Of a stretch of 24,000 bases of DNA, positions 6,727 through 23,064 are shown piece by piece. Numbering within the stretch: the first letter of the stretch is position 1; the number at the start of each line of letters is the position of its first letter. A program made the position numbers and the translations under genes. Source of the DNA: Ktedonobacteria bacterium brp13 (GTDB taxonomy: Bacteria > Chloroflexota > Ktedonobacteria > Ktedonobacterales > Ktedonobacteraceae); the NCBI GenBank assembly GCA_015099395.1, contig AP024096.1:5721485-5745484 (forward strand). The letters run 5' to 3'. The notes below the pieces were generated by a model. The model was not told the origin of the DNA. It saw only the letters and a program-made list of their open reading frames with translations, and searched no databases.

Positions 6727-6751
6727 GCTGTATAGAAGAGAAGAGATAGGA

Positions 6752-6770
6752 GGAGCACACAAGGTGCTCC
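6752..6770 (+). terminator. Hairpin after the second efflux cassette (terminator-like, no U-tract)
   Basis: GGAGCAC (6752-6758) pairs with GTGCTCC (6764-6770) around a 5-nt loop. It is followed by CCCATCC rather than a T-run. Confidence 0.35.
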
Positions 6771-7763: not shown

Positions 7764-7898
7764 TGAATCCAACATAGTATAGATATAAAGAACAGAGAGA
7801 GTTGCCCTTTCTTGCCAGAAGGGGTAGCTCTCTCTCTCTGTCTGCCTGCCTGTCTGCCAGGTGGTTAGCCGCCACAGGGTCCAGGATAGGATTTCTAC

Positions 7899-7927
7899 TT
7901 GACACCACCATAGAAGTCTGCTATCTT
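7899..7927 (+). promoter_or_regulatory. Sigma70-like promoter for the tRNA
   Basis: TTGACA (7899-7904), a 17-nt spacer, then TATCTT (7922-7927). This is 31 nt upstream of the tRNA 5' end. Confidence 0.5.
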
Positions 7928-7958
7928 TGTATCGGTTGCAGGTCGTAAGACTGCCTCT

Positions 7959-8031
7959 GGGGCTGTAGCTCAGTGGATAGAGCGTCGGTTTCCTAAACCG
8001 TGCGTCGGCGGTTCGAGTCCGCCCAGTCCCA
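7959..8031 (+). tRNA. tRNA-Arg (anticodon CCT)
   Basis: Cloverleaf folded by hand. Acceptor GGGGCTG/CAGTCCC has one G-U pair. D arm is GCTC-AGTGGATA-GAGC. Anticodon arm is TCGGT-TTCCTAA-ACCGT, with T33 and A37 flanking CCT and a U-U at 27-43. The variable loop is 5 nt. T arm is GGCGG-TTCGAGT-CCGCC, with discriminator A. No CCA is encoded. Total length 73 nt. Confidence 0.9.
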
Positions 8032-8039
8032 TTTCTCCC
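7989..8039 (+). repeat. attL core: 3' 43 nt of tRNA-Arg plus 8 nt downstream
   Basis: TTTCCTAAACCGTGCGTCGGCGGTTCGAGTCCGCCCAGTCCCATTTCTCCC is identical to 22177-22227. Confidence 0.9.
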
Positions 8040-8301
8040 TCCCACCGCTCCCCAACTGGCTTCGCAAGGAAACCGACACAGAAGAAACACCATTATTTTT
8101 TAGCTTGTTCTTCCCTCGGACGGTACAAACTTTACTTCGGAGAGCTAGAAAACCGTACTTCGGATATCTATTTGTCTCTCCCTCGGAACAAAGAGTACCA
8201 TACTCTGATTCATTTATGCAAGAGGTCACTAAAAACGATAGAAATGACTGGACTGTATCTGATGAAAAACTAGAACTTCTGCATATTCCTAAACACTCTT
8301 C

Positions 8302-8475
8302 GGTGACTTTTTTTCTTTACCCCAACACACCAGCGAGTTTATTTTCTTTTTGGGTGAGTTTCCAGGGACTTTTTATTTTCTCAGGCGAGTTTTGGGAAAT
8401 TTTTTATTCGGCAGGGTGAGTTTGATTTATTTGGTGTGAGTTCCAGGGTGAGTTTTTTATTTGGCTGGTGAGTTT
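8302..8475 (+). repeat. Eight same-strand copies of GGTGAGTTT-like motif with helically phased spacing
   Basis: Copies start at 8302 (GGTGACTTT), 8332 (AGCGAGTTT), 8353, 8384 (GGCGAGTTT), 8415, 8435 (TGTGAGTTC), 8447 and 8467. Spacings are 30, 21, 31, 31, 20, 12 and 20 bp, with T-rich spacers. Confidence 0.7.
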
Positions 8476-8574
8476 TTTTTATTCCCCTGTTCTGTTGAGT
8501 AAGATTTAGGTGATAGCCAAGAGGTTATCAGCGAATTCGGGGTTGCTTCGGTGCGGCGATTCGTGTTCAAGGGA

Positions 8575-8617
8575 GGCGGGTAGTTGCCTCTCAAAAATAA
8601 CCCTCAATTCTGAAAAC
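8575..8617 (+). repeat. Dispersed ~41-43 bp element, copy a (CRISPR-repeat-related)
   Basis: GGCGGGTAGTTGCCTCTCAAAAATAACCCTCAATTCTGAAAAC matches copy c (10976-11016) at about 34/43 positions. It shares the core GTAGTNNCCTCTCAAAAT with copy b. Confidence 0.7.
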
Positions 8618-8671
8618 ATATCCCCACACAAAAAACACCCTTGAGCTTTATTTCTCTTGGGTGTCTTCTAC

Positions 8672-9074
8672 CAATCAGTATCCTCTGCGGATCGTGGCCT
8701 CTGCAACCAAATTTATTGACATGATCAACTCATCAGGTTCGACTTTCAGTATCCTCAAGCGGATCGTGGCCTCTGTAACAATGGGCGTATTTCTGAAGTG
8801 GGCTATTACCACAGAGTTTCAGTATCCTCAAACGGATCGTTTCCTCTGCAACTACCAAGAGATGATTCTTTCTCAGAAGGCGGCGATTGTGTTTCAGTAT
8901 CCTCAAGCGGATCGTAGCCTCTGCAACCAGCAGACTTCGAGGCTGTCATTAAAACCATCAATGATCTTTCAGTATCCTCCAACGGATCGAAGCCTCTGCA
9001 ACTCAGTCTTGATCGACCCGGTTACTAGTGAGCCAGCCTTCCAGTATCCTCAAGCGGATCGAGGCCTCTGTAAC
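8672..9074 (-). CRISPR. CRISPR array, repeat family A (6 degenerate 36-37 nt repeats, 5 internal spacers)
   Basis: Repeats lie at 8672-8707, 8743-8779, 8816-8852, 8891-8927, 8966-9002 and 9038-9074. The plus-strand consensus is GTTTCAGTATCCTCAAGCGGATCGTGGCCTCTGCAAC. Spacers are 35-38 nt and unique. The reverse complement GTTGCAGAGG...ATACTGAAAC has the usual GTTGCA...GAAAC form, so I infer minus-strand transcription. Every repeat differs from the consensus. Confidence 0.85.
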
Positions 9075-9110
9075 AAACTGAAAATCGAGTGCGGCGATAT
9101 GCTAGAGACA

Positions 9111-9360
9111 GTTTCCATTCTAAACGGGTTCAGCAGGCCATTTAGCCAGACAAAAACAACCCTGTAGGAAGAGGATTTGTAGTTTCAATCCCCAATGGGT
9201 TCAGCAGGCCATTTAGCCACTGGAAATATGGGGTTTTTACATTTGAGCCGTTTCAATCCCTCACGGGTTCTGCTGGCCGTTTAGACAGAGACAACGCCGC
9301 GACGGTATACCACAGGTTGGGAAGTTTCAATCCCTGACGGGTTCTGCAAGCCATTTAGAC
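9111..9360 (-). CRISPR. CRISPR array, repeat family B (4 degenerate 37 nt repeats, 3 internal spacers), directly abutting family A
   Basis: Repeats lie at 9111-9147, 9182-9218, 9250-9286 and 9324-9360. The plus-strand consensus is GTTTCAATCCCTNACGGGTTCTGCAGGCCATTTAGAC. Its reverse complement ends in AGGGATTGAAAC. Spacers are 31-37 nt. A 36-nt spacer-like gap (9075-9110) joins it to family A with no leader between them. The AT-rich candidate leader is 9361-9630. Confidence 0.85.
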
Positions 9361-9552
9361 TGCCACTCTTCTAGAATAACATAGGAAGCTGTTCAATACA
9401 AGTGTTTCCGAACGTCACAAAAAATCCATCATAGCAAGGGAATGTAAGGGGGTGTACGTTTATGAAAAGGGAAAAGAAGCGGTTGAAATTGATGATCGGG
9501 GTATCAGTGATTTTTAGGATTGCTATGGCGCAAAGTGTTTGAAGCAAGACAT

Positions 9553-9578
9553 ACGCGTAGTAGCCTCTCAAAATCATC
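9553..9578 (+). repeat. Dispersed element, copy b (core only), inside the putative CRISPR leader
   Basis: GCGTAGTAGCCTCTCAAAATCATC shares the core GTAGTNGCCTCTCAAAAT with copies a and c. Confidence 0.5.
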
Positions 9579-9638
9579 TTCTTAGCCATACTTTGAACTT
9601 TATGGATTCATGAGCGTCTATATCGATAGAGGTGAAAT

Positions 9639-10931
9639 ATGGCAAATCAAGAGCATCTAGACGTCCTTAAGCAAGGAGTAGCGGTTTGGAATAAGTGGCG
9701 CGAGGAACATCCAAACATACAACCTGATTTGAACCAAGCCGTGCTTAATGGTCTTGATTTGAGCAGATATAACTTCAGTAACGTTCAACTTGTAGGAGCA
9801 TTTCTTCATCAAGCAAAACTCATTGAAGCAAATCTCAGCTCCACCACAGGAACCAGCACAGTTTTTAGTGAAGCGGATCTGAGCATGGCAAATTTAAGCT
9901 GTTCCAATTTTAGCAGAGCAAATTTTAGTCGTGCCAATCTTTATCATGTCAATCTTCAATATACCTATCTATTTGGAACCATGCTCAAACAAGCAAACCT
10001 GAATGAAGCAAAATTGGATGAAGCCCTCCTCAGTGAGGCTGACTTGAGTTTTGCCAGTCTTGTCACGGCAACGTTAACGAAAGCAAATCTCACCAGAGCG
10101 AACCTGAGCTATACCTGGCTTACTAACGCCGATCTTAGCAATGCCATTTTGGCCTCAGCTTACTTTGCAAATGCGAACCTTCCAGGCGTGTATCTTTGTC
10201 ATGCAATTCTTGTAGGAGCCAATTTTACTGATGCTGATCTTTACGCGGCTCATCTTGATAATGCAAATCTTGAGAGAGCCATCTTTGTTGGAACAAGGTT
10301 AAAAAAGGCAGACTTAAGCAATTGTTTCATTCATGGTATTTCATCCTGGAATGTTCAGCTTGAGGAAGCCACTCAACGTAATCTTATTATTACTCGGCGC
10401 AATGAGCCCAAGATCACTGTCGATAGCCTTGAAGTTGCTCAGTTTATCTACCTTCTCCTCAATAACCAGAAAATTCGCGATGTTATCAACACGATCACCT
10501 CGAAAGTGGTCTTGATATTGGGTCGCTTTACAGATGAGAGAAAACTAGTTTTAGACGCTCTAAGGGATGAACTGCATAAACATAACTATTCTCCCGTTGT
10601 ATTTGATTTTGATCCATCAGCAAAACGAGATCTGACAGAAACTATCAGTACTCTTGCTCATATGTCCCGTTTCATTATTGCCGATCTTACTGATGCTAAA
10701 AGCCTTCCTCAAGAACTACAAGCTATCGTGCCGAATCTCCCTTCGGTTCCTGTCCAACCTATCTTGCACATAGATGGTCGAGAATACGCTATGTTTGAGC
10801 ACTTCAAGCGCTATTCCTGGGTACTGGAAACCTACCGCTACCAAGATATTCCTACAATGCTTGCATCCCTCAATGAAAACATCATTGAACCAGCAGAAAA
10901 GAAGGCCATAGAGTTAGAAGGTCGAAGATAG
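9639..10931 (+). CDS. Pentapeptide-repeat protein fused to a C-terminal alpha/beta domain of unknown function
   Basis: AGAGGTG RBS. Residues ~30-235 are continuous A(D/N)LXX pentapeptide repeats (ANLSRANLYHVNL, ADLSFASL, ANLTRANLSY, ADLSNAIL, and more). The C-terminal ~150 aa (VVLILGRFTDERKLVLDALRDELHKHNYSPVVFDF...SRFIIADLTDAKSLPQELQAI) has a strand-helix-strand pattern reminiscent of TIR-like or nucleoside-deoxyribosyltransferase-like folds. This fold assignment is unverified. Confidence 0.85.
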   Translation: MANQEHLDVLKQGVAVWNKWREEHPNIQPDLNQAVLNGLDLSRYNFSNVQLVGAFLHQAKLIEANLSSTTGTSTVFSEADLSMANLSCSNFSRANFSRANLYHVNLQYTYLFGTMLKQANLNEAKLDEALLSEADLSFASLVTATLTKANLTRANLSYTWLTNADLSNAILASAYFANANLPGVYLCHAILVGANFTDADLYAAHLDNANLERAIFVGTRLKKADLSNCFIHGISSWNVQLEEATQRNLIITRRNEPKITVDSLEVAQFIYLLLNNQKIRDVINTITSKVVLILGRFTDERKLVLDALRDELHKHNYSPVVFDFDPSAKRDLTETISTLAHMSRFIIADLTDAKSLPQELQAIVPNLPSVPVQPILHIDGREYAMFEHFKRYSWVLETYRYQDIPTMLASLNENIIEPAEKKAIELEGRR

Positions 10932-10975
10932 CTGTGTTCAGGATTACTACAGTGCTAGTCGACGTGGTGAGGATC

Positions 10976-11016
10976 GGCGGGTAGTGACCTCTCAAAATAA
11001 TCCTATTTTCTGAAAC
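10976..11016 (+). repeat. Dispersed ~41-43 bp element, copy c
   Basis: GGCGGGTAGTGACCTCTCAAAATAATCCTATTTTCTGAAAC lies 45 nt after the pentapeptide gene stop. Confidence 0.7.
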
Positions 11017-11254
11017 TTGCTCGATAGAATAGGTACTCCTCTATTCAGTTAGGATTTCTAAATTCTTCTGCTGTTAATTTTGCTTGAGATTATATACCTT
11101 CTAACATCTCTAAATCGAGAGAAATAGATCGAAAAGCATTATTCGTTCGGTACTGTTTAGGTATATTTTAAGTAAATCATGTTGCCCCTCTTCCGAATAC
11201 CCTCCTCTTTGTCTCTTCTCATCGCGGACCTAGTGACTTCTCTACTCAATATGC

Positions 11255-12007
11255 TCACTTATTTTTTCGCCTTGTATCGTAAAGGTACAGAGCTACCGCG
11301 GAAACAACGGTAATAGCAGCAATATAAGTAAGTATTGTATCAAGCGGAGAAAGGGTATTAACTTGTGCCCTGCTATTGGTATTGATGGTAAACTCATAAA
11401 CTGATATGGAGATGCCAAGCATTAAAAGAAATGGAATCAAATAAGATATCATTGCACGATTATATTGCTGTTTTAATGCTTTGATTTGCGCATTAGCAAT
11501 TCTTCCCCCAACATAAATACTTTGATCTTCTCCGTCAATCAAGGTAGATATGGAAATTTCATCCTTTGGATTAAAAAGCTTTTTCTGAAGAGTTATTTCT
11601 GATCCCTGCCATTGGACAAAATCTTTCTTGTCTTCTGGTTTAAGAAAAAAGTTTTGTGGATCTGTATTTAGAACTTCTGCGCTTATAATTGTGGCTCCTT
11701 GGATTTGAATTGATAGGGGATCTTCAATATCATCTTTTTTGACTGCGTCATTTCCTGTATTTATAAGCTTAATAACTATGAGCCTGGGGCTATTCATCTC
11801 AGATCCATCCAGAAGGATTTTGATTCTATCTTTCATTTTTTCATTAATGCTAACCAAAGGAGCATTGGAGACAATCTCATAGGAAATTTCTTTCTTTAAT
11901 TTTTGCCGCTTGTAAATCCAAATAGCAACTATAATTGCGGTAACGCCTACCACTACAGCTACTATGATGTTTACTATAAATTGCGTTAATGGGCTTTGAA
12001 AATCCAT
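11255..12007 (-). CDS. Hypothetical membrane protein (1 N-terminal and 2 C-terminal TM helices flanking a beta-rich middle domain)
   Basis: A long ORF in an AT-rich region. I prefer the ATG at 12007 (GAAGGA upstream) over the GTG at 12046. The TM segments are FIVNIIVAVVVGVTAIIVAIWIY, ISYLIPFLLMLGISISVY and ILTYIAAITVVSAVALYLY. No recognisable family. Confidence 0.6.
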   Translation of the reverse strand: MDFQSPLTQFIVNIIVAVVVGVTAIIVAIWIYKRQKLKKEISYEIVSNAPLVSINEKMKDRIKILLDGSEMNSPRLIVIKLINTGNDAVKKDDIEDPLSIQIQGATIISAEVLNTDPQNFFLKPEDKKDFVQWQGSEITLQKKLFNPKDEISISTLIDGEDQSIYVGGRIANAQIKALKQQYNRAMISYLIPFLLMLGISISVYEFTINTNSRAQVNTLSPLDTILTYIAAITVVSAVALYLYDTRRKNK

Positions 12008-12284
12008 AATGGCAACATTTCCTTCTGTATCGCTGCTAATATTCACGTTTATTGATGCAATATTAATTCATATACATAAAAATATCAATACAAAAATAGG
12101 TCCACTTCTACCTTTTCTCTCTACAAGAACCCTCAATGAAACTGCGCCGCAGTCATCAAGTATTTCCGTCAAGCTCCGTAATCACTGTAAGCGGCTCCTC
12201 TACCACTCTTTAGATAGAAAGATCCACCATAACATTTATTTCGCTACCCCACCCCACTATAATTGAAAACATTTTTAGGTTTTT

Positions 12285-12378
12285 AAAACGATTTGACAAA
12301 CGGTTTTTACGTGCATTTTCTGTGTTCTGCTGCCTGTAAAACGATTTTCAAAATTGAAAACGATTTGACAAACGGTTT
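12285..12378 (+). repeat. Perfect 22-bp direct repeat pair AAAACGATTTGACAAACGGTTT, each containing TTGACA
   Basis: Copies lie at 12285-12306 and 12357-12378. Related AAACGATTTT and CAAACGGTTTTTA fragments are at about 12338 and 12388. Confidence 0.8.
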
Positions 12379-12486
12379 GTAAAAATACAAACGGTTTTTA
12401 GGTCTAAACGACTCCTCATGTCGCAAGCATGGGTTGTACAGCTATATTGACAGCAATAAATTACCACATTACATGGAGTCTCTTTT

Positions 12487-12698
12487 GGTTACATCAAAAA
12501 ATGTAACCTTACACGGGTTACATCACTCAGCTCTATCGCTTCATGTAACTTACATCAATCTCCGTGTAACCAGTAATTTTTTCATGTAACATTATATCCT
12601 AGCTTGGTGTAACCTTTCCTGGGTTACATCTACTAACTCGGAGAGTTACATTTAATTACGTGTAACATTACATCTAGGCTCTGTAGGTTACATGTAAC
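12487..12698. repeat. Iteron-like cluster of GTTACAT / (A/G)TGTAAC heptamers (candidate replication origin or operator array)
   Basis: GTTACAT occurs at 12488, 12517, 12623, 12645 and 12687. ATGTAAC occurs at 12501, 12543, 12584 and 12692. GTGTAAC occurs at 12564, 12607 and 12660. There are additional TTACAT(C) partial copies. The cluster includes the palindromes GGTTACAT-caaaaa-ATGTAACC (12487-12508) and GTTACATGTAAC (12687-12698). Confidence 0.8.
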
Positions 12699-12785
12699 AC
12701 TACAATCTCATTTCTATCGCTTCCCATTTGGATGTGTAAAAAATACGCCATCTGGGTTTGCCAGATGACGCATCATGTTAAGCAC

Positions 12786-13154
12786 TTATCTTGTCCTCAA
12801 GGCATAAGCGTTTCTTTCTATTGCTCTTCTTGCTTTGTATACGGTACGTACTGGATCATTTCGAACCTCGCTAGCTGTGTAGCGGATAACTGTCCAGCCA
12901 CGTGATTCAATGTATCGTTGGCGGCGCTGATCTCGTTGTACTTGTTCTGGTGAGGTGTGATACGCATCTCCGTCAATCTCAATAATTGTGCGGCTTTCTA
13001 GGTGAGCGAAATCGGCGTAGTAGGAGAATTTACCTGAGTGGTGAGGTATTTCATACTGAGGAATGAGAGGGTAGAGGATGTTCTGTTTGTGCCAGAATGA
13101 GAGGAAGCGGGTTTCCTGGTAGGAGGTTTGAGGAATGAAGGCATTTGTGGTCAT
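12786..13154 (-). CDS. DUF559/Vsr-like PD-(D/E)XK endonuclease-domain protein
   Basis: YYADFAHLESRTIIEIDGDAYHTSPEQVQRDQRRQRYIESRGWTVIRYTASEV matches the DUF559 pattern (D-F...E-x-D-G..H....D..R...L...GW.V.R). The RBS is GAAAGGAC. Confidence 0.75.
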   Translation of the reverse strand: MTTNAFIPQTSYQETRFLSFWHKQNILYPLIPQYEIPHHSGKFSYYADFAHLESRTIIEIDGDAYHTSPEQVQRDQRRQRYIESRGWTVIRYTASEVRNDPVRTVYKARRAIERNAYALRTR

Positions 13155-13451
13155 GCTACGAGTCCTTTCTTGGGGAGGTTAAAAAAGAAGTTGAGGGGGT
13201 TGAAGGTGGGTTGATGGGGGGAGGGAGCCTCACCGCTCCACACCCCGGCGATAGAAATGATTGTGTGGGGCTCGTTGGAAACATCCACTCTAATTCCTTA
13301 TTTCTATCGCTTTACTATAATTAATGAATAAAAACAAACAAACGATAAAGAACACATAGGACGGATAGGACACATAAAATCCCAGAAATGAGAAATGAAA
13401 AATCATAATCCCAAAAAGGGGAAATCATGTGTCCTATGCGTTCATCTGTTC

Positions 13452-14897
13452 TTAGAAGGAATTAGTAGATGAGCGATTAGTTGAGACTAATCGTAATCCT
13501 ACGTATCCACGTGTTTGTGTTCCAGGCATCTTGGGTCTTAACTCTACCTGCGGATATCTTTTCTTTATTGCTTGCGAGAAGTGTTTGCCTTTCTTCGGCT
13601 CCACTGCATTCTCTTCACACCAATGTCCGTAAGACCTTATAACGTCGCCGCTTGCCGCCTGGCCTTCCCCATCGATAATGGCGCAATCTTCAATCCATTG
13701 GGAAATGGTATCTAATTCTTTTCGCCTCTCCTGAACGTTTTTCTTAAGACATTCTGGTACGATGAGCCGTCCTTGCTTGTACCACTCGATTGCACCTTCG
13801 ACTGCCCAACGTAATACACCTTGTTTTGCTTCGTAAGTTCTGAGTCGTTCTTTAAGGCTAATGTCTTCCTTATCGAGGTGGCTATTTGGAAACTCTACGG
13901 CAATCAAACGTCCCCAGATAGCGTCATCGTCAACATCTGCATCGACTTCAAAGTTAGATGTAAGGCAGATCTTAAACTTGGGTTTAAATCGAAATTCATC
14001 CTTGCCTTTGTATGCCGCTACCAACTGGTTACCTCCAGTCATGACCTTGACCTTAGCTGCATTGAGCGATTGGTATCTTGCACTTTCAGATGCGAATACC
14101 ATAAGTGCTGGCTTAAGAGACGCGAGGTCAAAGTTATTTGTGTTCTCATCATTCTTTGCGACAAAGGTGTTGATGCTCTTTTCCTGAGCAATAGGATCAG
14201 GGAGTAAACTGTGTAGTGTTTCAGTAAACGTCCCTTTCCCTGAACGGGTTGGGCCATAAATGTAAAGCATCTTCTCTTCTCTGGTATGTCCTGTGAGCAT
14301 GTATCCACACCACATCTTTAGGATTTTTACTCCTCCTACGCTCGAAAGTAGAAATTGTTCCCATTCACGATAGTCGGCATTAGGGTCATACTCTACGTTA
14401 GCTACAAACGTGAATCCTTTATCGGGATTGTGCGGTAGCAGTTCACCTGTTTGTAGATTAATGAGGCCATTAGGTACTGGTAAAAAGTCTATTTCTTTGT
14501 CAAACTCAGTTATCTCTGTCGCTACGTAACTTTCTAGGAGAGACATAACTGCATTGATGTTGCTGGCATCTGCGCTGCATTTCTTTAGCAGTCTGTCATC
14601 GTTAGCTAGCGCTGCTACTGTTTTTCGTTTGCGAAGTGTATCGATTACCAAGTGTTTTACTGCATGTCGATTCGTTTCCCAATATTTGCCATTCCAAATT
14701 ATCCAGCTTTGTTGATCTGTATAGCGAATAAAATCCCCGTATAAGAAAGCTACAGCACGTGCGTTTCCGTCGTTGTCTGGTTCAAACTCTAAGAGTTTTA
14801 TTTGCTGCTCATTCAACTCCAGATCTCGAATATACCGTAGTTTATTATTTGCGAAATCTGATGTGTTGTCGCTGCTCCCGTAAGCAAAATTTTTCAT
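13452..14897 (-). CDS. Phage/plasmid primase, P4 family (D5_N-like region plus SF3-type NTPase)
   Basis: 481 aa. Walker A is YIYGPTRSGKGTF and Walker B-like is ALMVFASES. The N-terminal NGKYWE / LPVPNGLINLQTGELLPHNP region and the C-terminal ISQWIEDCAI...SYGHWCEENA are typical of P4-alpha/D5-like primase-helicases. Confidence 0.85.
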   Translation of the reverse strand: MKNFAYGSSDNTSDFANNKLRYIRDLELNEQQIKLLEFEPDNDGNARAVAFLYGDFIRYTDQQSWIIWNGKYWETNRHAVKHLVIDTLRKRKTVAALANDDRLLKKCSADASNINAVMSLLESYVATEITEFDKEIDFLPVPNGLINLQTGELLPHNPDKGFTFVANVEYDPNADYREWEQFLLSSVGGVKILKMWCGYMLTGHTREEKMLYIYGPTRSGKGTFTETLHSLLPDPIAQEKSINTFVAKNDENTNNFDLASLKPALMVFASESARYQSLNAAKVKVMTGGNQLVAAYKGKDEFRFKPKFKICLTSNFEVDADVDDDAIWGRLIAVEFPNSHLDKEDISLKERLRTYEAKQGVLRWAVEGAIEWYKQGRLIVPECLKKNVQERRKELDTISQWIEDCAIIDGEGQAASGDVIRSYGHWCEENAVEPKKGKHFSQAIKKRYPQVELRPKMPGTQTRGYVGLRLVSTNRSSTNSF

Positions 14898-14954
14898 ATA
14901 TGTTCTCTCTTTCGTAATTTAAAAATTGGAGATTTCTTCTCTCTGTTACTGGGC

Positions 14955-15170
14955 TTACATGCGTATGCGTCGATTGGTGTCGTTCTGCATGTGGTGGACA
15001 TCTGACATAAGCTTGATAGACAGATCTACTGCACAGTTACTATGGAGGGTGATAGCTCCCACACTGCCAACCCAATGAATTGCAGGATAGCTGATATTGT
15101 GCCCACAGTAGAAGCAGTATTTCTGAACGTTGTGTTGGTATGGGTGATCAATGCCACGGAGATACGCCAT
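14955..15170 (-). CDS. Small hypothetical protein with a Cys/His cluster (possible zinc-binding)
   Basis: I moved the start to ATG 15170, preceded by GAAAGGACC, the same SD-like motif as the neighbouring island genes. The sequence YCFYCGH...LHSNC suggests a CxxC...HxxC arrangement. Confidence 0.5.
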   Translation of the reverse strand: MAYLRGIDHPYQHNVQKYCFYCGHNISYPAIHWVGSVGAITLHSNCAVDLSIKLMSDVHHMQNDTNRRIRM

Positions 15171-15260
15171 GTTATGGTCCTTTCGTGCAAACAAAAAAAG
15201 CCGTTGACAATCGTGTCCAGGCTTCTTGTCAATGTTGCTATTCTATTGTTGTGTTTGCTT

Positions 15261-15428
15261 CTATCGCTGCCGGTATTTAAGAGCAGTTAGTACCGACCGA
15301 AGCACTTCAGGCTCAATGAGTTGATACTGCCCTACCTTTTGCACAGGAATACGTCCTTTCTTATGGTGGAACAGAACAGAGTTATAAGGTACGCCAATTG
15401 TTTTTGCTGCATCTTTCAATGTATGCAT
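15261..15428 (-). CDS. Excisionase/AlpA-like HTH DNA-binding protein
   Basis: I moved the start to ATG 15428, with AAGAAAGGACTCGTC upstream. MHTLKDAAKTIGVPYNSVLFHHKKGRIPVQKVGQYQLIEPEVL fits the MerR-type excisionase-family HTH pattern. 55 aa. Confidence 0.7.
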   Translation of the reverse strand: MHTLKDAAKTIGVPYNSVLFHHKKGRIPVQKVGQYQLIEPEVLRSVLTALKYRQR

Positions 15429-15522
15429 GACGAGTCCTTTCTTTGTATTGGTGTTGAGGAAACGCAATTTGAGCGGTAGAATTGTTGCTGCTTTGTTAAC
15501 TTCCATAATAAGTATACCAAGA

Positions 15523-15582
15523 TTACCCCCTGTTATAGGACACTTTTTTATGAGTTTTTTCTGTATCCTTCAATGTGTGCAT
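15523..15582 (-). pseudogene. Truncated duplicate of the Xis-like gene 5' end (19 codons: MHTLKDTEKTHKKVSYNRG*)
   Basis: It lies within a ~100-bp imperfect duplication (15555-15650 vs 15401-15500). It shares the same RBS and the first 6 codons, then diverges into a stop. Confidence 0.6.
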
Positions 15583-16032
15583 GACGAGTCCTTTCTTTGA
15601 TATGGTTGTTGAATTGAGGAAATTTGTACAGGAAAATCGTTGTTGTTTATACTACTCAATTAGAGTATATAGGTTTCTAGGTCAGAGTTAGATGAGATAT
15701 GACTTTTGTCTAAAGATCCTATTATTCTTGAATATGTGAAGAATAGAGTAGTATAAACGCCTAATTTAGAGGGTTTTATTGATGACTATTTATAGCTATA
15801 TTGGGATCAAATCGAGCTTGATATAGTAGGTGGATACTCAAAAAAGGTTTTTCTATGTGGGTGGGTACATATTCATAAACTTCTCCTGAGATTGGTACGC
15901 CTATTGCAATAGCACAACTGATGAATAGCTGTCTACTCTCTCATTGAGCCCTATGTGAAGATAGCGATTGAGGAACAAAGCCGAAGAAACATGTGGAGTG
16001 CTAGAGGCTCCTGGTCTCCTCGGCTTTCGTGT

Positions 16033-16275
16033 TTAGTATGCTCGCTCTGTATATACTTTGATATCTGACAAATGAAGATTTGAGCCAACGAGACGTGAAA
16101 ATGCCTGAAGCACTTTGATAGCTGTCGCACGCTGTACAAAACCACCAATCTCAACTGCATAGGTTACAGAAAGTGGTAGGTTGGCTGCTCTAGCAAGATC
16201 AGAAGAACTGATAGGATGCTTTTTATCGTAATTATATTCACGCCGTAGTTGCAGTAGTGTTGGTTTCCTTTCCAT
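16033..16275 (-). CDS. Small HTH-like protein
   Basis: Start ATG 16275 has a strong AAGGAG RBS 7 nt upstream. ISSSDLARAANLPLSVTYAVEIG is HTH-like. Its N-terminus resembles that of the upstream gene (PTLLQLRREY vs LTLEQIRTLY). Confidence 0.65.
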   Translation of the reverse strand: MERKPTLLQLRREYNYDKKHPISSSDLARAANLPLSVTYAVEIGGFVQRATAIKVLQAFSRLVGSNLHLSDIKVYTERAY

Positions 16276-16306
16276 TGATGTACTCCTTAATAATGCTTTT
16301 AGCTTT

Positions 16307-16768
16307 TTATTGATCGGCTTTGACGTGTCCAGGGATCGAAATGTCACCAATCATAAGCCCTTCAGGACACGGTGTGAAGTAGTGATGTGGTAAATGTGGG
16401 CGATGCTCTAACCACGCGTGTGCTAACGCTGTGGCGTGCTTCTGGTCACGTGCATAGACAAAGTTGAACTCATCAAGTAGTTGGCTCTCTTTGACCTGCG
16501 GCTCTTCGGAACTTGCTCGCACAATCCAGAGGAACAGGTAGTCTTCCCATGTCACGATATCGACCTGATCAAACGAGAGTTGGAGGCCGATGTATTGCGA
16601 TAGGGCTGCTAGGATTTTATCTGCATCCACTTTATAGGCCGGTTTTTGCAGGAGAGTATGATAGACCGTCCGTGTACTGACTCCCGCTTGTGCTGCCAGT
16701 GTTGGGATATCAAAATGATACAGCGTTCTTATCTGTTCAAGCGTTAGCTTTTTATTTCTCTCGCACAT
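16307..16768 (-). CDS. HTH-domain protein with an unknown C-terminal domain
   Basis: The preferred start ATG 16768 lies 8 nt after the stop of the upstream gene, suggesting coupling. LTLEQIRTLYHFDIPTLAAQAGVSTRTVYHTL is HTH-like. The C-terminal ~90 aa are unassigned. Confidence 0.65.
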   Translation of the reverse strand: MCERNKKLTLEQIRTLYHFDIPTLAAQAGVSTRTVYHTLLQKPAYKVDADKILAALSQYIGLQLSFDQVDIVTWEDYLFLWIVRASSEEPQVKESQLLDEFNFVYARDQKHATALAHAWLEHRPHLPHHYFTPCPEGLMIGDISIPGHVKADQ

Positions 16769-16775
16769 AGGTTGG

Positions 16776-17006
16776 CTATCCCATCGTTTGAATATATGTC
16801 TCGACCGCAATCATGGCTGCTTCCTGTTCACCTACAATAGCCGCTAGCTGCTCCTGTATGCCCCCGATGCTGTCGTACTGATGCTGAATAATGTCGTGGG
16901 AGGCCGTAACTCGAAATCCTTCCATCGCTTGCTTCATCGCCTCACATTCCAGTTCTATCTGTCGCCTCAACAATGCAACTTCACTCAAGAGATTCTCCTT
17001 TCTCAT
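16776..17006 (-). CDS. Small coiled-coil protein, first gene of the leftward regulatory/replication operon
   Basis: MRKENLLSEVALLRRQIELECEAMKQAMEG has heptad-like character. No SD is visible. The start (ATG 17006 or TTG 17024) is uncertain and could be leaderless. Confidence 0.45.
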   Translation of the reverse strand: MRKENLLSEVALLRRQIELECEAMKQAMEGFRVTASHDIIQHQYDSIGGIQEQLAAIVGEQEAAMIAVETYIQTMG

Positions 17007-17094
17007 TCGGAAATCACCATTCAAATGGCACTATTTAGAAGTTACCATTACAGACACTCTATTGTCAAGCATGAGGTCGGTGTATCCTAAAACC

Positions 17095-17325
17095 ATGAGG
17101 ATAAGATTACGCGTCAAAGAGGTAGCAGAGGCTAAGGGCGTTTCGATGACAAAGCTACATATTAAGTCCGAAGTCTCCTACAACACTATCCGCCGCATAT
17201 TTCGAGAGCCATATGTTGAGATAACCACAACAACGCTTGCTCGGTTAGCTGAGGCTCTGGGGGTGAGTTCCCATGATCTCATCGAGGATGCCCCGGACGC
17301 TATCCCTGCACCTTCTACTGAATAA
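17095..17325 (+). CDS. XRE-family HTH regulator (controller-like), immediately upstream of the TIR-methyltransferase gene
   Basis: MRIRLRVKEVAEAKGVSMTKLHIKSEVSYNTIRRIF...TLARLAEALGVSSHDLIE is a typical Cro/C1-type HTH. An alternative start is ATG 17071. The ORF-track N-terminal extension to 16891 overlaps the divergent gene and I discard it. Confidence 0.75.
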   Translation: MRIRLRVKEVAEAKGVSMTKLHIKSEVSYNTIRRIFREPYVEITTTTLARLAEALGVSSHDLIEDAPDAIPAPSTE

Positions 17326-17390
17326 TTAATCGATTGCATATGCTTGATGTAATTCTTTTGTCTATTACTGAGTAGCAAGGAGCGCTATTA

Positions 17391-20300
17391 ATGACTACCC
17401 AGCCTATTGAAATTTTCTACTCCTACGCCCACGAAGATGAAGACCTCCAAAAGCAGCTTGACGAGCATCTTAGCTCACTCAAACAACAAAAACTGATTAG
17501 TGGCTGGTATGATCGAGATATTAGTGCTGGCGCATTATGGTCAGAGGAGATACAGCGTCATTTGCATTCTGCCCGTATTATATTGTTTCTTGTCAGTAGT
17601 TCATTTCTTGCATCGAAATATTGCTATGAAGTAGAGGTACAAGAAGCGTTAAAACGGCATGAGGCCGGTGAAGCAGTTGTTATTCCTGTTATTCTGCGCT
17701 CTTGCTACTGGCAAGTTGCCCCCTTTGGACAGTTTCAGGCATTGCCGAAGAATGCAAAACCTGTTACATTGTGGTCAAACCGTGACGCTGCTTTTACGGA
17801 TGTGGTGAAGGGCATTGTGAAGGTAATTAACGAAATCGATAGTCAGAAGAAGACGCTACCTACTCAGCAGAACGGTAAGCGAAAGAGGAGGATGGGCGAA
17901 GTGTTGGAAGAAGAGTATGAATCTACCGCAGCTATGCCAGAGATACCACACACACCAACAGCATTTAATAATACTCTCAAGAAGGCTATCGAGCGTTATT
18001 ATAAGGAACTCAAAGAGTATGAAGGCAAAGCAGACTACGAACTAGCCTTACGATCAGCGTTTCAGAACTTGCTGGCAGAAGCGTGTCGCCTTGTGAAGTG
18101 GACGTTGATTCCTGAGCAAACGTTAGAAGGTGGTATCCGCCCAGATGGTGTTGTGCGTGATGCTTTTGAATTGCGTCGTGGTTACTGGGAGGCGAAGGGG
18201 CCAAAGAGCGATCTGGATAAAGAGATTGCGAAGAAGATTGCCGATAACTACCCACTCATGAATACCCTCTTCGAAAATACCCGTGTAGCAGTACTGTATC
18301 AGAGTAAAAAGCGCTTGCCCTATGAATACGATTTAACGAAGCCTAACGATGTCAGCGACTTGATCAAGCAGTTTGTAACCTATACTGAACCGGATATTGC
18401 GAACTTTGAAACGGCTGTGGGAGAGTTCAAGCAACGCATTCCTGAATTGGCGAAGGCGCTACTAGACAGCATTGAGAAGGAACAAAAGCAGAATAAGAAA
18501 TTCATAACGGCCTTCGATACCTTTACTGAACTTTGCCGAACCTCTCTTGATCCAAAAATTAGCGACAATACTATCAAGGAGATGCTTGTTCAACACTTGC
18601 TGACTGAGCGCCTTTTCCGCACGATCTTTGGTAACGCCGATTTCGTCAACCGCAATGTGATCGCTGCTGAGATTGAGCGTGTTATTCAGGCTCTTACCAG
18701 TCGTTCTTTTGATCGCCAGGAATTTCTTAAATCACTGGATCGTTTTTACGTAGCGATAGAAAGTGCTGCGAAAGGTATTGAAAGTTGGTCAGAACGTCAA
18801 CACTTCTTGAACACCGTCTACGAACGATTCTTCCAGGGTTTCTCTGTCAAGCAAGCTGATACATTAGGTATTGTCTACACACCGCAAGAGATTGTAGATT
18901 TTATGTGTGCTAGCGTTGAGGAGGTCTTACAACGTGAGTTTGGTACTTCAATCGCTGAACCTGGTGTGCAAATCCTCGATCCTGCTACGGGAACAGGAAG
19001 CTTTATTGTGAATCTCCTACATCGTATTCCTCGTCATCAGTTAAAACATAAGTATAGGCATGATCTTTTTTGTAATGAGGTTACCTTATTGCCCTACTAC
19101 ATCGCATCACTAAATATTGAGCATGAATATTTTGAACGTGTCGGTGAATATGAACCGTTCGAGGGTATTTGTTTTGCTGATACTTTGGAGTTGGCTGAAG
19201 GTCAACAATTACCACTTTTTGTAGAGGAGAATACTGAGCGGGTACAACGAGAAAAAGATGCTCAAATTATGGTGGTGATCGGTAATCCTCCTTATAATGT
19301 TGGTCAAAAGAGTGAAAATGATAATAATAAAAACCGCAAATATCCTTTAACGGATGCTCGTGTAAGTGAGACTTATGCTAAAGATTCCAAGGCAAGTAAT
19401 AAGATTGCTCTGTCTGATGTCTACGTTAAGTTCTTTCGTTGGGCTTCTGATCGTTTAGGAAACCGAGATGGCGTTGTTTGCATGATTACAAATAATTCCT
19501 TTATTGATCAGGTGGCGTTTGATGGCATGCGTATGCACTTACAGAAAGATTTCACAACGATTTATCATATTGATTTGCATGGTAATGTGCGGAAGAATCC
19601 AAAAATATCTGGTACTACGCATAATGTCTTCGGTATTCAAGTTGGTGTGGGTGTTACTATTGCTGTTCGTAATGCCAAGCAGCTAAAAAAGGTTATCTAT
19701 TACAATCGTGTTCCTGATTTTTGGCGTAAAGCGGAGAAATTAGCGTTTTTAAAAGAAAAAGGCAATATTTCAGCTATAGAATGGCTAGAATTACAGCCAA
19801 ACGAACGGCATATCTGGATGACAGAAGGATTGAGACCGGAGTTTAGTACCTATTTCCCTATGGGTAGCAAAGAAGCTAGACTCGTTAAGAGTGGCACTAT
19901 AGCAGAGTCTAATGTTAAAACTATTTTCAAAACCTATTCGCTAGGACCACGTACAAATCGCGATGATTGGGTACGTGACTTTAATAGAGAAGCCCTTACA
20001 CGCAAGGTATTTAGGCTTGTAGATACGTATAATGGTGAAGTTGATCGTTGGCATAGAAGAGGGAGTAATAATACAGGAGTTGACGATTTTGTCATTTATG
20101 ATGATAAAAGGATAAAATGGAGCAGAGATTTAAAATTAGATCTTCAACGTGGTAGCTATTCACAGTATAATGAGGAGAAAATTCGTCGCTCACTATATAG
20201 ACCATTTTGTAAACAGTATCTCTTCTTTGACCGGGTTTTAAATGAAGAAGTTTATCAATTCCCTCAAATCTTGCCTACTTCTACTACTGAGCAAGAGAAT

Positions 20301-21086
20301 ATTTTTATTGGTTTAACAGATTTAGGTTCAGAGAAACCTTTCATGGTTATGGCCTCTAATCTTATCACTGATGTACATTTGGTGGGTGCTGGCTGCGGAA
20401 CACAGTGCTTCCCCTTTTATACTTATTCGGAAGATGGCAGTAATCGTCGTGAAAACATTACCAATTGGGCTCTCAATCAATTTCAGGCTAGGTACGGCAA
20501 TCAAGTTACTAAATGGGATATCTTTCATTACGTCTATAGCCTCTTGCACCACTCTCAATACCGTGAACGTTATGTTGAGAACCTCAAGCGAGATTTGCCT
20601 CATATTCCACTTGTCCATACACCAGAAACATTTCAAAGCGTTGTGAATATTGGCAAACAGCTTATGGATATCCATCTGAACTATGAGACAGCGAAAGAGT
20701 ATCGTTTGACATGGTTAGAAAATGAGAATGTGCCTTTTAGCTGGCGTGTGGAGAAGATGCGTTTGTCTACGGATAAGCGTGTAGTGGTTGTCAACGAGAG
20801 CCTGAGACTTGGACCATTGCCGCAGGAATGTTTTGATTATCGATTGGGAAATCGTTCTGCACTTGAGTGGGTTATTGATCAGTACCAGGTCTCAAAAGAT
20901 TCTCGTAACGGTATTGAGAGCGACCCTAATCGGCTGGATAACGAAGAGTATATTGTACGTCTAGTCTGCAAAGTAGTTCAGGTCAGTGTTGAGACGGTGC
21001 AGTTAGTGAATGAGTTGGCTCAGAAAGTGACTGTAGAGGATTGGACAGAGGAGAGTGTGAATGTAAGCGAGGCTACAGAGGTATAA
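17391..21086 (+). CDS. TIR domain + PD-ExK-like motif + gamma-class N6-adenine DNA methyltransferase + Type ISP-like C-terminal (target-recognition) domain fusion
   Basis: AAGGAG RBS. Residues 6-150 are a bacterial TIR (IEIFYSYAHEDEDL ... ILFLVSSSFLASKYCYEVE, with candidate catalytic Glu E80 at nt 17628-17630). A nuclease-like motif is D252...E267-A-K269 (IRPDGVVRDAFELRRGYWEAK, nt 18144-18197). AdoMet motif I is DPATGTGSF (nt 18978-19004). Motif IV is NPPY (nt 19284-19295). The C-terminal FPFYTY...ENITNWAL...IFHYVYSLLHHSQYRERYVENLKRDLPHIPL...LMDIHLNYE resembles, from memory, the C-terminal domain of Type ISP enzymes (LlaGI/LlaBIII). No Walker A or helicase motifs were seen. Confidence 0.8.
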   Translation: MTTQPIEIFYSYAHEDEDLQKQLDEHLSSLKQQKLISGWYDRDISAGALWSEEIQRHLHSARIILFLVSSSFLASKYCYEVEVQEALKRHEAGEAVVIPVILRSCYWQVAPFGQFQALPKNAKPVTLWSNRDAAFTDVVKGIVKVINEIDSQKKTLPTQQNGKRKRRMGEVLEEEYESTAAMPEIPHTPTAFNNTLKKAIERYYKELKEYEGKADYELALRSAFQNLLAEACRLVKWTLIPEQTLEGGIRPDGVVRDAFELRRGYWEAKGPKSDLDKEIAKKIADNYPLMNTLFENTRVAVLYQSKKRLPYEYDLTKPNDVSDLIKQFVTYTEPDIANFETAVGEFKQRIPELAKALLDSIEKEQKQNKKFITAFDTFTELCRTSLDPKISDNTIKEMLVQHLLTERLFRTIFGNADFVNRNVIAAEIERVIQALTSRSFDRQEFLKSLDRFYVAIESAAKGIESWSERQHFLNTVYERFFQGFSVKQADTLGIVYTPQEIVDFMCASVEEVLQREFGTSIAEPGVQILDPATGTGSFIVNLLHRIPRHQLKHKYRHDLFCNEVTLLPYYIASLNIEHEYFERVGEYEPFEGICFADTLELAEGQQLPLFVEENTERVQREKDAQIMVVIGNPPYNVGQKSENDNNKNRKYPLTDARVSETYAKDSKASNKIALSDVYVKFFRWASDRLGNRDGVVCMITNNSFIDQVAFDGMRMHLQKDFTTIYHIDLHGNVRKNPKISGTTHNVFGIQVGVGVTIAVRNAKQLKKVIYYNRVPDFWRKAEKLAFLKEKGNISAIEWLELQPNERHIWMTEGLRPEFSTYFPMGSKEARLVKSGTIAESNVKTIFKTYSLGPRTNRDDWVRDFNREALTRKVFRLVDTYNGEVDRWHRRGSNNTGVDDFVIYDDKRIKWSRDLKLDLQRGSYSQYNEEKIRRSLYRPFCKQYLFFDRVLNEEVYQFPQILPTSTTEQENIFIGLTDLGSEKPFMVMASNLITDVHLVGAGCGTQCFPFYTYSEDGSNRRENITNWALNQFQARYGNQVTKWDIFHYVYSLLHHSQYRERYVENLKRDLPHIPLVHTPETFQSVVNIGKQLMDIHLNYETAKEYRLTWLENENVPFSWRVEKMRLSTDKRVVVVNESLRLGPLPQECFDYRLGNRSALEWVIDQYQVSKDSRNGIESDPNRLDNEEYIVRLVCKVVQVSVETVQLVNELAQKVTVEDWTEESVNVSEATEV

Positions 21087-21145
21087 GCCCGTACGTAAGG
21101 GGTAGAAAGAGAGTGCGTTACTCCCTCAATACCCCCTATCGCTTT

Positions 21146-22081
21146 TTATCTACTAGTCCTTCGTCTGGTTGTATTCGGCGTCTTTCTCGCTTCTTCGGCC
21201 TGGAACGTCTTCAAGTAGACCTCTGTGACCTTTACTGAACTGTGGCCCATGAGAATACTTAGTCGATAGATATCACCTCCATTACGAAGGTAGTTCACTG
21301 CAAAGGTATGTCGGCACGTGTGAGCAGAGCAGCGTACTCCCTCGATTTTGCCCCATCGCGCCAATCGATCAAATAACATATCTATGCCCTTTATCGTGAG
21401 CGGCTGATAGTATCTTGAGGCGAATGCTGGTTCATCGTTACCTGCCTCTTTACGATATGCCTCTAAATAGCGTCTCAATCGCCTTCTGACCTCGTTTGGA
21501 AGCCCTACCTCTCTCCACTTCCTACCCTTGCCGTAGACTTTGATATGTGCGTCTTCTGGATGAAGGTAGATATTACCGACGGTAAGTGTGCAAAGCTCAT
21601 TAGAACGGATGCCAGTGTTTAGAAACAGGTCTAGTATCAATTCATCTCTATCGCGTAGATGTTGGTTGTATTCTTGCTGAGAGGCTTTGTAGAGCTCTTT
21701 GATATGGTCCTGTGTGAAGGTCTCAATGATCACTACGTCTACCTTCGGCGGCTTGATGCGTTTGACGGCTTTCTCGCTGACATGGCCCTCGTATTCGTCG
21801 TCTTGAGCACACCAGTTAGCAAAGCCTTTCACGACCTGGACATAGCCGTGTACTGTATAGCTAGAGAGTGTGGTATTCTTACGTGGTGAGCGCGTGCGAG
21901 AGAGATGATCTTGGAAGCGGGTGACTGTGCGGTTATTCATATCTGCAAGGTTGATGTCGTTCGCTGCACACCATTCGGAGAAAACGGCTAACTTCTGCTC
22001 GTACCACTGGTATGTCTTTGGCTGTAGTGTCTGGCATTCAGTCAGATAGTCGGCGATGGCGTTGGTTATGGATGTTCCCAC
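21146..22081 (-). CDS. Tyrosine recombinase / phage-type integrase
   Basis: GTG start with an AAAGGACC RBS. There is an N-terminal SAM-like core-binding region. Catalytic residues are recognisable: NTGIRSNEL (Arg), GKGRKWREV (Lys), AHTCRHTFA (His-x-x-Arg), LMGHSS (His) and TEVYL (Tyr). It lies 95 nt from attR. Confidence 0.92.
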   Translation of the reverse strand: MGTSITNAIADYLTECQTLQPKTYQWYEQKLAVFSEWCAANDINLADMNNRTVTRFQDHLSRTRSPRKNTTLSSYTVHGYVQVVKGFANWCAQDDEYEGHVSEKAVKRIKPPKVDVVIIETFTQDHIKELYKASQQEYNQHLRDRDELILDLFLNTGIRSNELCTLTVGNIYLHPEDAHIKVYGKGRKWREVGLPNEVRRRLRRYLEAYRKEAGNDEPAFASRYYQPLTIKGIDMLFDRLARWGKIEGVRCSAHTCRHTFAVNYLRNGGDIYRLSILMGHSSVKVTEVYLKTFQAEEARKTPNTTRRRTSR

Positions 22082-22176
22082 GATATTGGTCCTTTCGCAT
22101 AACCGTACCTTGGAAAGAGCTATTTTCGCTAAACCCGCTTGACAGGCTGGTTCATGGTGTATGTTCCGTGGTAATA

Positions 22177-22227
22177 TTTCCTAAACCGTGCGTCGGCGGT
22201 TCGAGTCCGCCCAGTCCCATTTCTCCC
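22177..22227 (+). repeat. attR core: displaced 3' tRNA-Arg fragment
   Basis: It is a 51/51 match to 7989-8039. It has no 5' tRNA half, since the upstream sequence gtaata differs from the tRNA. Confidence 0.9.
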
Positions 22228-22501: not shown

Positions 22502-23064
22502 CGCGTGGATGAGACGTATAGCAAAGTCAGGAACGTTTGGATGTACCTGTATCGGGCGGTGGATTCCGAGGGAACACCCTCGAGTTTCTCTTGAGTCCGA
22601 CGCGCGATGCCGAGGCGGCCACTCGTTTCTTCCTCAATGCGCTGCATTCCACCGCTGATGGAGCTCCTCAAGCTCATCCTGTCGAGGAACAGATGGCCCA
22701 ACCCGCGACTGTGGCCAACCCCGCCACATCAGCTCCTCGCATGATCAATGTCGATAAAAACGCGGCCTATCCCAAGGCCATGGCCGACTTGAAAGCCGCT
22801 GGCATCCTGCCTGAACACGTGGAATTGAGGCAAGTGAAATACCTCAACAATCTGATCGAGCAAGACCACCGGTTCATCTAACCGTTCCCCAACGGTTGAC
22901 GAAGCCAGGGATGGGCTTTTTCTCATTCGAGACAGCGTGGCGAACCTTACAAGGATACGCGCATGATGAACATGATGAGGAAAGGGTAAATACAAGGAGT
23001 GGCCAAAGGTGATGTGAGAGGCCAAGTTGCCTTGGTTGCCAGGCTATTTGGAGTGGTTGTCTAA
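22502..23064 (+). pseudogene. IS6-family (IS26/IS6100-like) DDE transposase, decayed by frameshifts and an in-frame stop
   Basis: RVDETYSKVRNVWMYLYRAVDSEG, then a 1-nt deletion, then LEFLLSPTRDAEAATRFFLNAL...INVDKNAAYPKAMADLKAAGILPEHVELRQVKYLNNLIEQDHRFI. After a further frame change comes KPGMGFFSFETAWRTLQGY, another frame change, then MMNMMRKG*IQGVAKGDVRGQVALVARLFGV. These blocks match the conserved blocks of IS6-family transposases as I recall them. The N-terminal ~80 codons are not intact. Confidence 0.8.

Follow-up and report, generated by a model that had tools for sequence, protein, structure and literature searches.

Restriction–modification (RM) and abortive infection by depletion of NAD+ are usually treated as separate layers of bacterial immunity. 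In the EcoprrI–PrrC system, a Type I RM enzyme holds an abortive-infection anticodon nuclease latent, and a phage anti-restriction peptide serves as the trigger. The TIR NADases of SPARTA, Cat1, SARM1 and plant NLRs all require assembly, and in STAND/NLR-like systems the effector fires upon oligomerization of the sensor. Here we describe a gene that would join these two layers in one polypeptide. It lies in a stretch of 24,000 nucleotides of Ktedonobacteria bacterium brp13 (AP024096.1, positions 5,721,485–5,745,484, forward strand; hereafter ‘the window’) and encodes a predicted DrdV-type RM enzyme with a TIR domain fused to its N-terminus (hereafter ‘TIR-RM’), a combination that is conserved and apparently undescribed.

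The mechanism of DrdV is known in detail. A single protomer occupies the asymmetric site with its nuclease clear of the DNA that it holds; a pair of DNA-bound protomers makes a dimer that does not cut, and cutting occurs only after one or two more protomers, likewise on DNA, have docked through nuclease–nuclease contacts (bioRxiv 10.1101/2021.01.06.425610). The docking contacts (K8, D15, E41 and R46) lie at the N-terminal end of the nuclease domain, the nuclease active site comprises E25, D64, E79, K81 and K94, methylation is slow, and cutting requires several unmodified sites simultaneously (bioRxiv 10.1101/2021.01.06.425610). We infer that PDB entry 7LO5 is this 1029-aa Type IIL enzyme from the equal length and domain order given for DrdV (bioRxiv 10.1101/2021.01.06.425610).

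The TIR-RM gene is preceded by a Shine–Dalgarno (SD)-like AAGGAG 8 nt 5′ of its ATG, and its product is 100% identical to a Ktedonobacteria bacterium brp13 protein. An initial annotation, made from the nucleotide sequence alone, had read the open reading frame (ORF) as TIR, PD-ExK nuclease, gamma-class N6-adenine methyltransferase (MTase) and target recognition domain (TRD) without a helicase; this order is borne out, and every domain that it listed is found far above chance by Pfam and PADLOC (Table 1). Pfam places TIR_2 at residues 8–128 (7e-15) and also reports TIR (9e-9), both above gathering scores, followed by ISP_coupler at 346–465 (7e-19), N6_Mtase at 470–651 (8e-14), Eco57I at 619–728 and Type_ISP_C at 845–1190 (3e-98). 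Among PADLOC profiles, a ThsB1-type TIR profile matches residues 7–161 (4e-52), and the helicase-less Type IIG profile PDLC03621 spans residues 215–1211 against profile positions 23–1014 of 1024 (2.5e-178). No NCBIfam equivalog was found for the protein.

Table 1. Positions in the window of the TIR-RM gene, its domains and key residues, and other features of the element that carries it.
Feature	Position	Strand	Basis
Whole TIR–linker–nuclease–connector–MTase–TRD gene	17391–21086	+	Single uninterrupted ORF, 1231 aa
TIR domain, aa 5–150	17403–17840	+	Pfam, PADLOC, AlphaFold2, Foldseek, family conservation
Catalytic Glu E82 codon	17634–17636	+	Conservation and alignment to solved TIRs
Flexible linker, aa 151–197	17841–17981	+	Composition, AlphaFold2 disorder, family alignment
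PD-ExK endonuclease domain, aa 198–345	17982–18425	+	Colinear alignment to DrdV 7LO5
D252 codon	18144–18146	+	Nuclease active site
K269 codon	18195–18197	+	Nuclease active site
Helical connector/coupler, aa 346–465	18426–18785	+	Pfam ISP_coupler 7e-19; DrdV connector alignment
Gamma-class N6-adenine DNA MTase domain, aa 466–728	18786–19574	+	Pfam N6_Mtase, Eco57I; both motifs invariant
MTase motif I DPATGTG, aa 530–536	18978–18998	+	Invariant in family alignment A2
MTase motif IV NPPY, aa 632–635	19284–19295	+	Invariant in family alignment A2
TRD, aa 845–1190	19923–20960	+	Type_ISP_C 3e-98; aligns to DrdV, LlaGI and LlaBIII TRDs
Small XRE-family helix–turn–helix (HTH) gene, 76 aa	17095–17325	+	Pfam HTH_26, HTH_3; 65 nt 5′ of TIR-RM
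Tyrosine integrase of element	21146–22081	-	Pfam Phage_integrase 6e-27
D5_N/DUF5906 primase, within element	13452–14897		Pfam scan of island ORFs
tRNA-Arg(CCT)	7958–8032		Overlapped by attL
attL, 51-nt repeat (3′ part of tRNA-Arg(CCT) plus 7 nt)	7989–8039	+	Perfect direct repeat
attR, identical 51-nt repeat	22177–22227	+	Perfect direct repeat

Downstream of the TIR and its linker, residues 198–1210 are colinear with residues 7–1025 of PDB 7LO5/7LVV (phmmer, E = 6e-193), and by this homology the RM body is judged to be a regular, full-length member of the structurally solved DrdV-type Type IIL family. The five active-site residues of the DrdV nuclease align with E217, D252, E267, K269 and K282, all of which are invariant or at least 90% conserved across the family. 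The D252...E267-x-K269 motif singled out initially thus falls on DrdV D64, E79 and K81, and its three residues are invariant or nearly so in relatives with and without a TIR alike. In the MTase, motif I (D530-P-x-x-G-T-G536) stands N-terminal to NPPY (N632-P-P-Y635), the gamma order recognized from the outset, and NPPY aligns with DrdV N448..Y451. The absence of a helicase likewise stands, as no Walker A or DExx motif was found in the 1231-aa protein, and matches to helicase-bearing profiles and structures, including a PADLOC profile of 1646 positions, begin only at residue 352. The initial annotation had called the body ‘Type ISP-like’, which is right for the coupler, MTase and TRD, where its recognition of the C-terminal Type ISP specificity domain proved sound, and too narrow for the whole, which is a full-length DrdV-type Type IIL enzyme. 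An anomalous Type ISP enzyme that lacks its helicase was also considered as the RM body and is ruled out by the end-to-end match to DrdV.

At the N-terminus, residues 5–150 are, to judge from sequence and a predicted structure, a TIR domain bearing the hallmarks of a catalytic TIR. A complete TIR with a conserved catalytic Glu had been claimed, with E80 as that Glu; the domain holds and the residue does not. Among the 66 TIR-bearing protein clusters in the best 120 homologues (58–71% identity), E82 is Glu in 64, whereas the E80 position is Gly in 44 and Glu in 3. The catalytic Glu, placed at the start of helix alpha-C, is therefore E82, and an E80A substitution would mutate the wrong residue. 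D16 is kept in 66/66, W39 and G47 (BB loop) in 65–66/66 and Y77, an aromatic residue four to five positions ahead of the Glu, in 63/66. A profile search of solved structures with the TIR region is led by Cat1 (2e-8), and in the printed alignments E82 stands opposite the catalytic Glu of Cat1 (‘DEL’), AbTir (‘YEL’) and AtTIR (‘DEL’), with Y77 opposite a Trp of AbTir. An AlphaFold2 model built from the TIR-region alignment (predicted local distance difference test, pLDDT, 88; predicted template modelling score, pTM, 0.83) has as its top Foldseek matches Cat1, SARM1, AbTir (TM 0.68, rmsd 2.6 Å) and SPARTA, at probability 1.00, and plant TIRs and the MAL and MyD88 filaments are also among the matches. 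In conservation the TIR roughly equals the RM body, with a mean column identity of 63% in its alignment and a mean pairwise identity of ~66% in the core.

Between TIR and nuclease, residues 151–197 are rich in T, A, S, G and P with a basic patch, the corresponding segment varies from 37 to 71 aa across the family, and AlphaFold2 pLDDT falls below 50 from residue 156, so that the linker is modelled as disordered and is predicted to tether the TIR flexibly to the N-terminal end of the nuclease. Near its end an in-frame Met (M182, ATG at 17934) aligns with the start Met of TIR-less homologues, and an equivalent Met is present in 43 of the 66 TIR-bearing proteins. This ATG is preceded by a purine-rich SD-like stretch (e.g. 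ggaggaggaacgATG) that resembles the 5′ untranslated region of TIR-less genes in 9 of 14 TIR-bearing loci (L001–L003, L009, L010, L013, L014, L027 and L044); no SD-like motif occurs within 12 nt of the M182 ATG in the window. The SD and ATG in the linker look like the footprint of a fusion event, and the internal start may possibly still be used to make a TIR-less isoform.

TIR-less homologues of ~1030–1045 aa, 66–70% identical over 84% of the query, stand alone. When the shared core is arranged in a neighbour-joining tree, TIR-bearing and TIR-less sequences intermingle, and ~10 state changes among 120 sequences indicate that the TIR was gained or lost repeatedly. As the nuclease is equally conserved in both forms, the TIR is an addition and not a replacement. 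A survey of GTDB that took one genome for each species yields 560 stretches encoding relatives. Among the best 80 of these loci the TIR-bearing form is confined to Ktedonobacteria (Ktedonospora, three Thermogemmatispora, Dictyobacter, Ktedonosporobacter and several metagenome-assembled genomes; ~15 species of several genera, 54–71% identity), whereas TIR-less forms occur in Ktedonobacteria, Planctomycetota, Acidobacteriota, Armatimonadota, Binatia and others. That TIR-less homologues might be mis-called starts or split genes was considered and rejected: no TIR ORF lies upstream in L004–L007, where the upstream gaps are 177–248 nt in L004 and L007 and the sole upstream ORF in L005 and L006 is of 98 aa on the opposite strand. 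One locus (L021) does carry TIR and RM body as separate, overlapping ORFs (5992–6708 and 6662–9676), frameshifted or split. No other N-terminal effector fusion on a DrdV-like enzyme was seen in the 80 loci, in which longer ORFs are over-extended starts or TRD insertions, with one C-terminal extension. In IMG/VR viral contigs a single partial relative was found (residues 350–1222); the TIR-RM gene is not typically phage-borne, and a megablast search of a plasmid collection with the gene gave no match.

The small XRE gene that the initial annotation placed ahead of TIR-RM is confirmed on the same strand. In the survey, 11 of 16 TIR-bearing loci, distant Thermogemmatispora loci among them, have a same-strand XRE homologue 34–80 nt upstream, versus 0 of ~65 TIR-less loci (Fisher p = 4e-10, not corrected for shared ancestry). 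The family was found only beside TIR-bearing genes, and it is not obligatory, five TIR-bearing loci being without it. Its consensus reads MLRLRVKEIA..KG....KL.........TV..I.RDP.......TL..LA.AL.V...DLIED, and in Ktedonosporobacter rubrisoli (L030, 5089–5928) three tandem paralogues stand ahead of the TIR-RM gene. Control in the manner of RM C proteins had been suggested; what remains of this is an upstream, same-strand HTH gene, and the likeness to C proteins is one of analogy only. No inverted repeat of at least 10 nt was found in 16950–17400 that might serve as a C-box, although a short or degenerate operator may be present, and searches of the PDB returned only weak SinR matches (E 0.2–0.65) with no C protein among them, for which reason the label ‘controller protein’ was dropped. 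A promoter and terminator scan around the TIR-RM gene gave fewer hits than shuffled sequence and is hence uninformative.

Relatives of the TIR outside the fusion bear on what it may do. A TIR-only profile search finds very many proteins of 150–290 aa at 50–67% identity, many on short contigs and possibly fragments. The closest free-standing TIRs (53–60% identity) lie beside NB-ARC–TPR STAND genes or are fused to them, and two on long contigs are directly upstream of NB-ARC–DUF7779–TPR STAND genes, suggesting that NLR-like systems of the same bacteria use this type of TIR as their effector module. An effector role is thus favoured over that of a ThsB-like sensor. A HMMER search of all cluster representatives with residues 1–350 gave 28,607 representatives at E <= 1e-3, dominated by free and tandem-repeat TIR proteins, which shows this TIR type to be very abundant, and fusions are not countable from it; its top hits (P0241–P0255) carry 3–6 tandem copies of this TIR type in proteins of up to 1928 aa. 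Two further TIR genes were seen beside members of the RM family: a TIR–NB-ARC–TPR gene (12235–15228) 2.5 kb downstream of the split ORFs of L021, and, in the Chloroflexaceae locus L045, a TIR–LysM protein (9057–10394) convergent with a TIR-less DrdV-like gene and 3 nt from its end.

How might a TIR serve a restriction enzyme? We propose, by analogy with DrdV and with TIR NADases and at about an even level of confidence, that the DNA-templated oligomerization that licenses DrdV-type cleavage may also gather the TIRs and thereby switch on NAD+ cleavage. By homology with DrdV, the enzyme would bind an asymmetric site and slowly methylate one strand of host DNA. On incoming DNA, several protomers would sit on unmodified sites and form dimers, then trimers or tetramers, and contacts between nuclease domains would license double-strand cleavage, which in Type IIL enzymes falls at a fixed distance. 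The TIRs would hang from the N-termini of these nuclease domains, so the same assembly would bring them together to form the composite active sites that TIR NADases require. The ensuing NAD+ cleavage would supplement the cutting of DNA with growth arrest or abortive infection, or with an NAD-derived product. With a single event licensing both effectors, the fusion would carry no self-toxicity beyond that of the nuclease. The XRE protein most likely would keep expression of a potentially toxic enzyme low or timed. One polypeptide would thus methylate self, cut non-self and collapse NAD+ when non-self sites accumulate, as where cleavage is blocked or outrun, providing a second effector against phages whose DNA is bound yet poorly cut or cleared. 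The broader claim, that an RM enzyme here acts as an abortive-infection trigger whose assembly on unmodified foreign DNA activates a fused TIR NADase, we put forward more tentatively, as possible and somewhat short of an even chance. Two observations support the coupling: added DrdV protomers make contact through the N-terminal part of the nuclease, which is the point where the linker attaches, and the XRE gene accompanies only the TIR-bearing form.

Several observations weigh against this proposal. The TIR is dispensable for the family, as its many TIR-less members attest. A flexible tether of 37–71 aa gives, by itself, no guarantee of productive TIR–TIR contacts. The strongest defence-database match of the TIR is to the profile of ThsB, a producer of signals. 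Finally, the DrdV interface residues K8, D15, E41 and R46 align with A199, E206, R233 and V235, of which D15/E206 is the sole conservative change; as the salt-bridge residues are not kept, the higher-order geometry may differ, and the mode of assembly is drawn from overall homology only.

Other roles for the TIR can be set against the same evidence. It could be a non-catalytic assembly domain whose self-association raises the local concentration of the RM enzyme, aiding trimers or tetramers on DNA with few sites. Many TIRs do act as scaffolds, as the MAL and MyD88 filaments among the structural matches recall, cleavage of the DrdV type is limited by oligomerization, and proteins with tandem copies of this very TIR type exist. 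A scaffold, however, needs none of E82, Y77 and D16, which are kept here as in NADase TIRs, and constitutive self-association would risk cutting the transiently unmodified sites of the host, so that we regard this role as unlikely. We think it rather improbable that the TIR, on sensing of foreign DNA, makes in the manner of ThsB a messenger of the cyclic-ADP-ribose type or a related one, activating an effector whose gene lies elsewhere in the genome, and does not itself deplete NAD+. The ThsB1 profile is its best PADLOC match, and the conserved catalytic Glu would be required for signal production too, but neither a ThsA-like gene (SIR2, or a transmembrane segment or Macro with SLOG) nor any other receiver gene was found in the four TIR-bearing neighbourhoods inspected gene by gene (the window and L001–L003). 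A mobile element would moreover need a compatible receiver in every host, and it is in STAND effector modules, and not in Thoeris operons, that the nearest free TIRs are found.

The TIR might also be a functionally irrelevant or decaying passenger that a recent gene fusion left on an otherwise ordinary Type IIL RM enzyme. TIR-less siblings that stand alone are common, the TIR has come and gone repeatedly, the linker retains an SD and an ATG that seem once to have belonged to a gene without a TIR, and in L021 a frameshift has split the TIR off. Nevertheless the fusion is intact in 66 protein clusters and in ~15 species of several genera, down to 54% identity, and the TIR retains its catalytic residues and is about as conserved as the body that carries it, making a passenger very unlikely. 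That the TIR acts on nucleic acid or protein and not on free NAD+, through the 2′,3′-cyclic nucleotide monophosphate (cNMP) synthetase/nuclease activity reported for plant TIRs or NAD-dependent ADP-ribosylation of bound DNA, is hardly probable at all, since, for all that the TIR is tethered to a DNA-bound enzyme and has plant TIRs among its structural matches, the closest of these matches are NAD+-cleaving TIRs (Cat1, SARM1, AbTir and SPARTA) and no specific sequence evidence speaks for such an activity.

The TIR-RM gene is carried by an integrated element at tRNA-Arg (~8040–22227, 14.2 kb) bounded by perfect 51-nt repeats, with the integrase beside the gene, much as the initial annotation had it (Table 1). 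Apart from the primase, its other cargo comprises a DUF559 protein, a pentapeptide-repeat protein, small HTH-like ORFs and several small ORFs that match no family. Run on the remaining island genes, PADLOC gave only a weak PDC-S37 fragment match for the DUF559 protein and no partner effector. Related elements carry the TIR-RM gene in Reticulibacter and Dictyobacter, and in Dictyobacter alpinus (L002) the backbone is similar (DUF559, a ~476-aa protein, XRE, TIR-RM and integrase). Just inside attL, two adjacent CRISPR-like arrays occupy 8670–9360: in the first, a ~37-nt repeat (GTTTCAGTATCCTCAAGCGGATCG..GCCTCTGCAAC) occurs six times with a period of 72–75; in the second, another repeat of ~37 nt (GTTTCAATCCC..ACGGGTTC.GC.GGCC.TTTAGAC) occurs four times with a period of 68–74. 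With repeats only 66–96% alike, both arrays are possibly degenerate. Among the window ORFs at 8661–22081, which were scanned against Pfam, no cas gene was seen, and a 168-aa ORF (8661–9167) that overlaps the first array is probably spurious. Just outside attR, a 114-aa ORF on the forward strand (22537–22881), ending ...VKYLNNLIEQDHRFI, is presumably a fragment of an IS6-family transposase.

If the coupling proposed here is true, TIR-RM would provide the first case of a TIR gated epigenetically, and a direct mechanistic bridge between first-line RM and abortive-infection defence. Being built on the scaffold of DrdV, whose mechanism is solved at atomic resolution, the fusion offers a simple, testable system for the passage from RM to abortive infection. 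It could show how activation of a TIR is templated by DNA sequence and methylation state, and what a restriction enzyme gains from a suicide effector. A DNA-sequence-gated NADase could, further, serve as a biosensor.

As to novelty, the initial annotation knew of no described system with this architecture, and we found no named defence family that has it. PADLOC would file the protein as a plain Type IIG RM enzyme, which hides the added effector, and similar accretions on RM enzymes may be under-counted by standard defence annotation. A literature search for TIR in combination with Type IIG, IIL, ISP, MmeI or RM returned no description, in a body of literature where subscription journals are thinly covered and absence is not proof.

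Compared with described systems, TIR-RM stands closest to DrdV of Deinococcus (PDB 7LO5/7LVV), which has the same order of nuclease, connector, MTase and TRD over its whole 1029 aa and likewise no ATPase. DrdV has no TIR, whereas TIR-RM has one, plus an XRE partner on a mobile element, and the four residues that form salt bridges in the DrdV nuclease dimer are not conserved in it. LlaGI and LlaBIII, both Type ISP enzymes, are homologous in coupler, MTase and TRD (residues 352–1211, E 2e-146 and 2e-128), but the RecA-type translocase that defines them is absent from TIR-RM, whose nuclease is DrdV-like and unlike the ISP N-terminus. On the side of the TIR, Thoeris ThsB is the best defence-profile match, yet TIR-RM has no adjacent ThsA and is fused to an RM enzyme, and the TIR plus NB-ARC–TPR STAND systems of Chloroflexota supply the closest TIRs, whereas TIR-RM has neither a STAND NTPase nor a TPR sensor. 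On these alignments we would class TIR-RM as a member of the DrdV-type Type IIL family that has accreted a TIR, and as neither Type ISP, for want of a motor, nor Thoeris, for want of ThsA. EcoprrI–PrrC is akin as a concept, RM coupled to a suicide effector, though there the proteins are separate, the effector is a tRNA nuclease and there is no homology. In working principle, if the coupling holds, TIR-RM would most resemble SPARTA (a short prokaryotic Argonaute, pAgo, with TIR-APAZ) and the CRISPR-associated TIR Cat1, whose TIRs rank among the best matches of its own TIR in both structure and sequence and which pair the sensing of nucleic acid with a TIR NADase active only on oligomerization. 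Sensing is by guide-RNA/target pairing in SPARTA and by binding of cyclic tetra-adenylate (cA4) in Cat1; in TIR-RM, which unlike either retains a nuclease of its own, it would be by sequence and methylation as read by the MTase and TRD.

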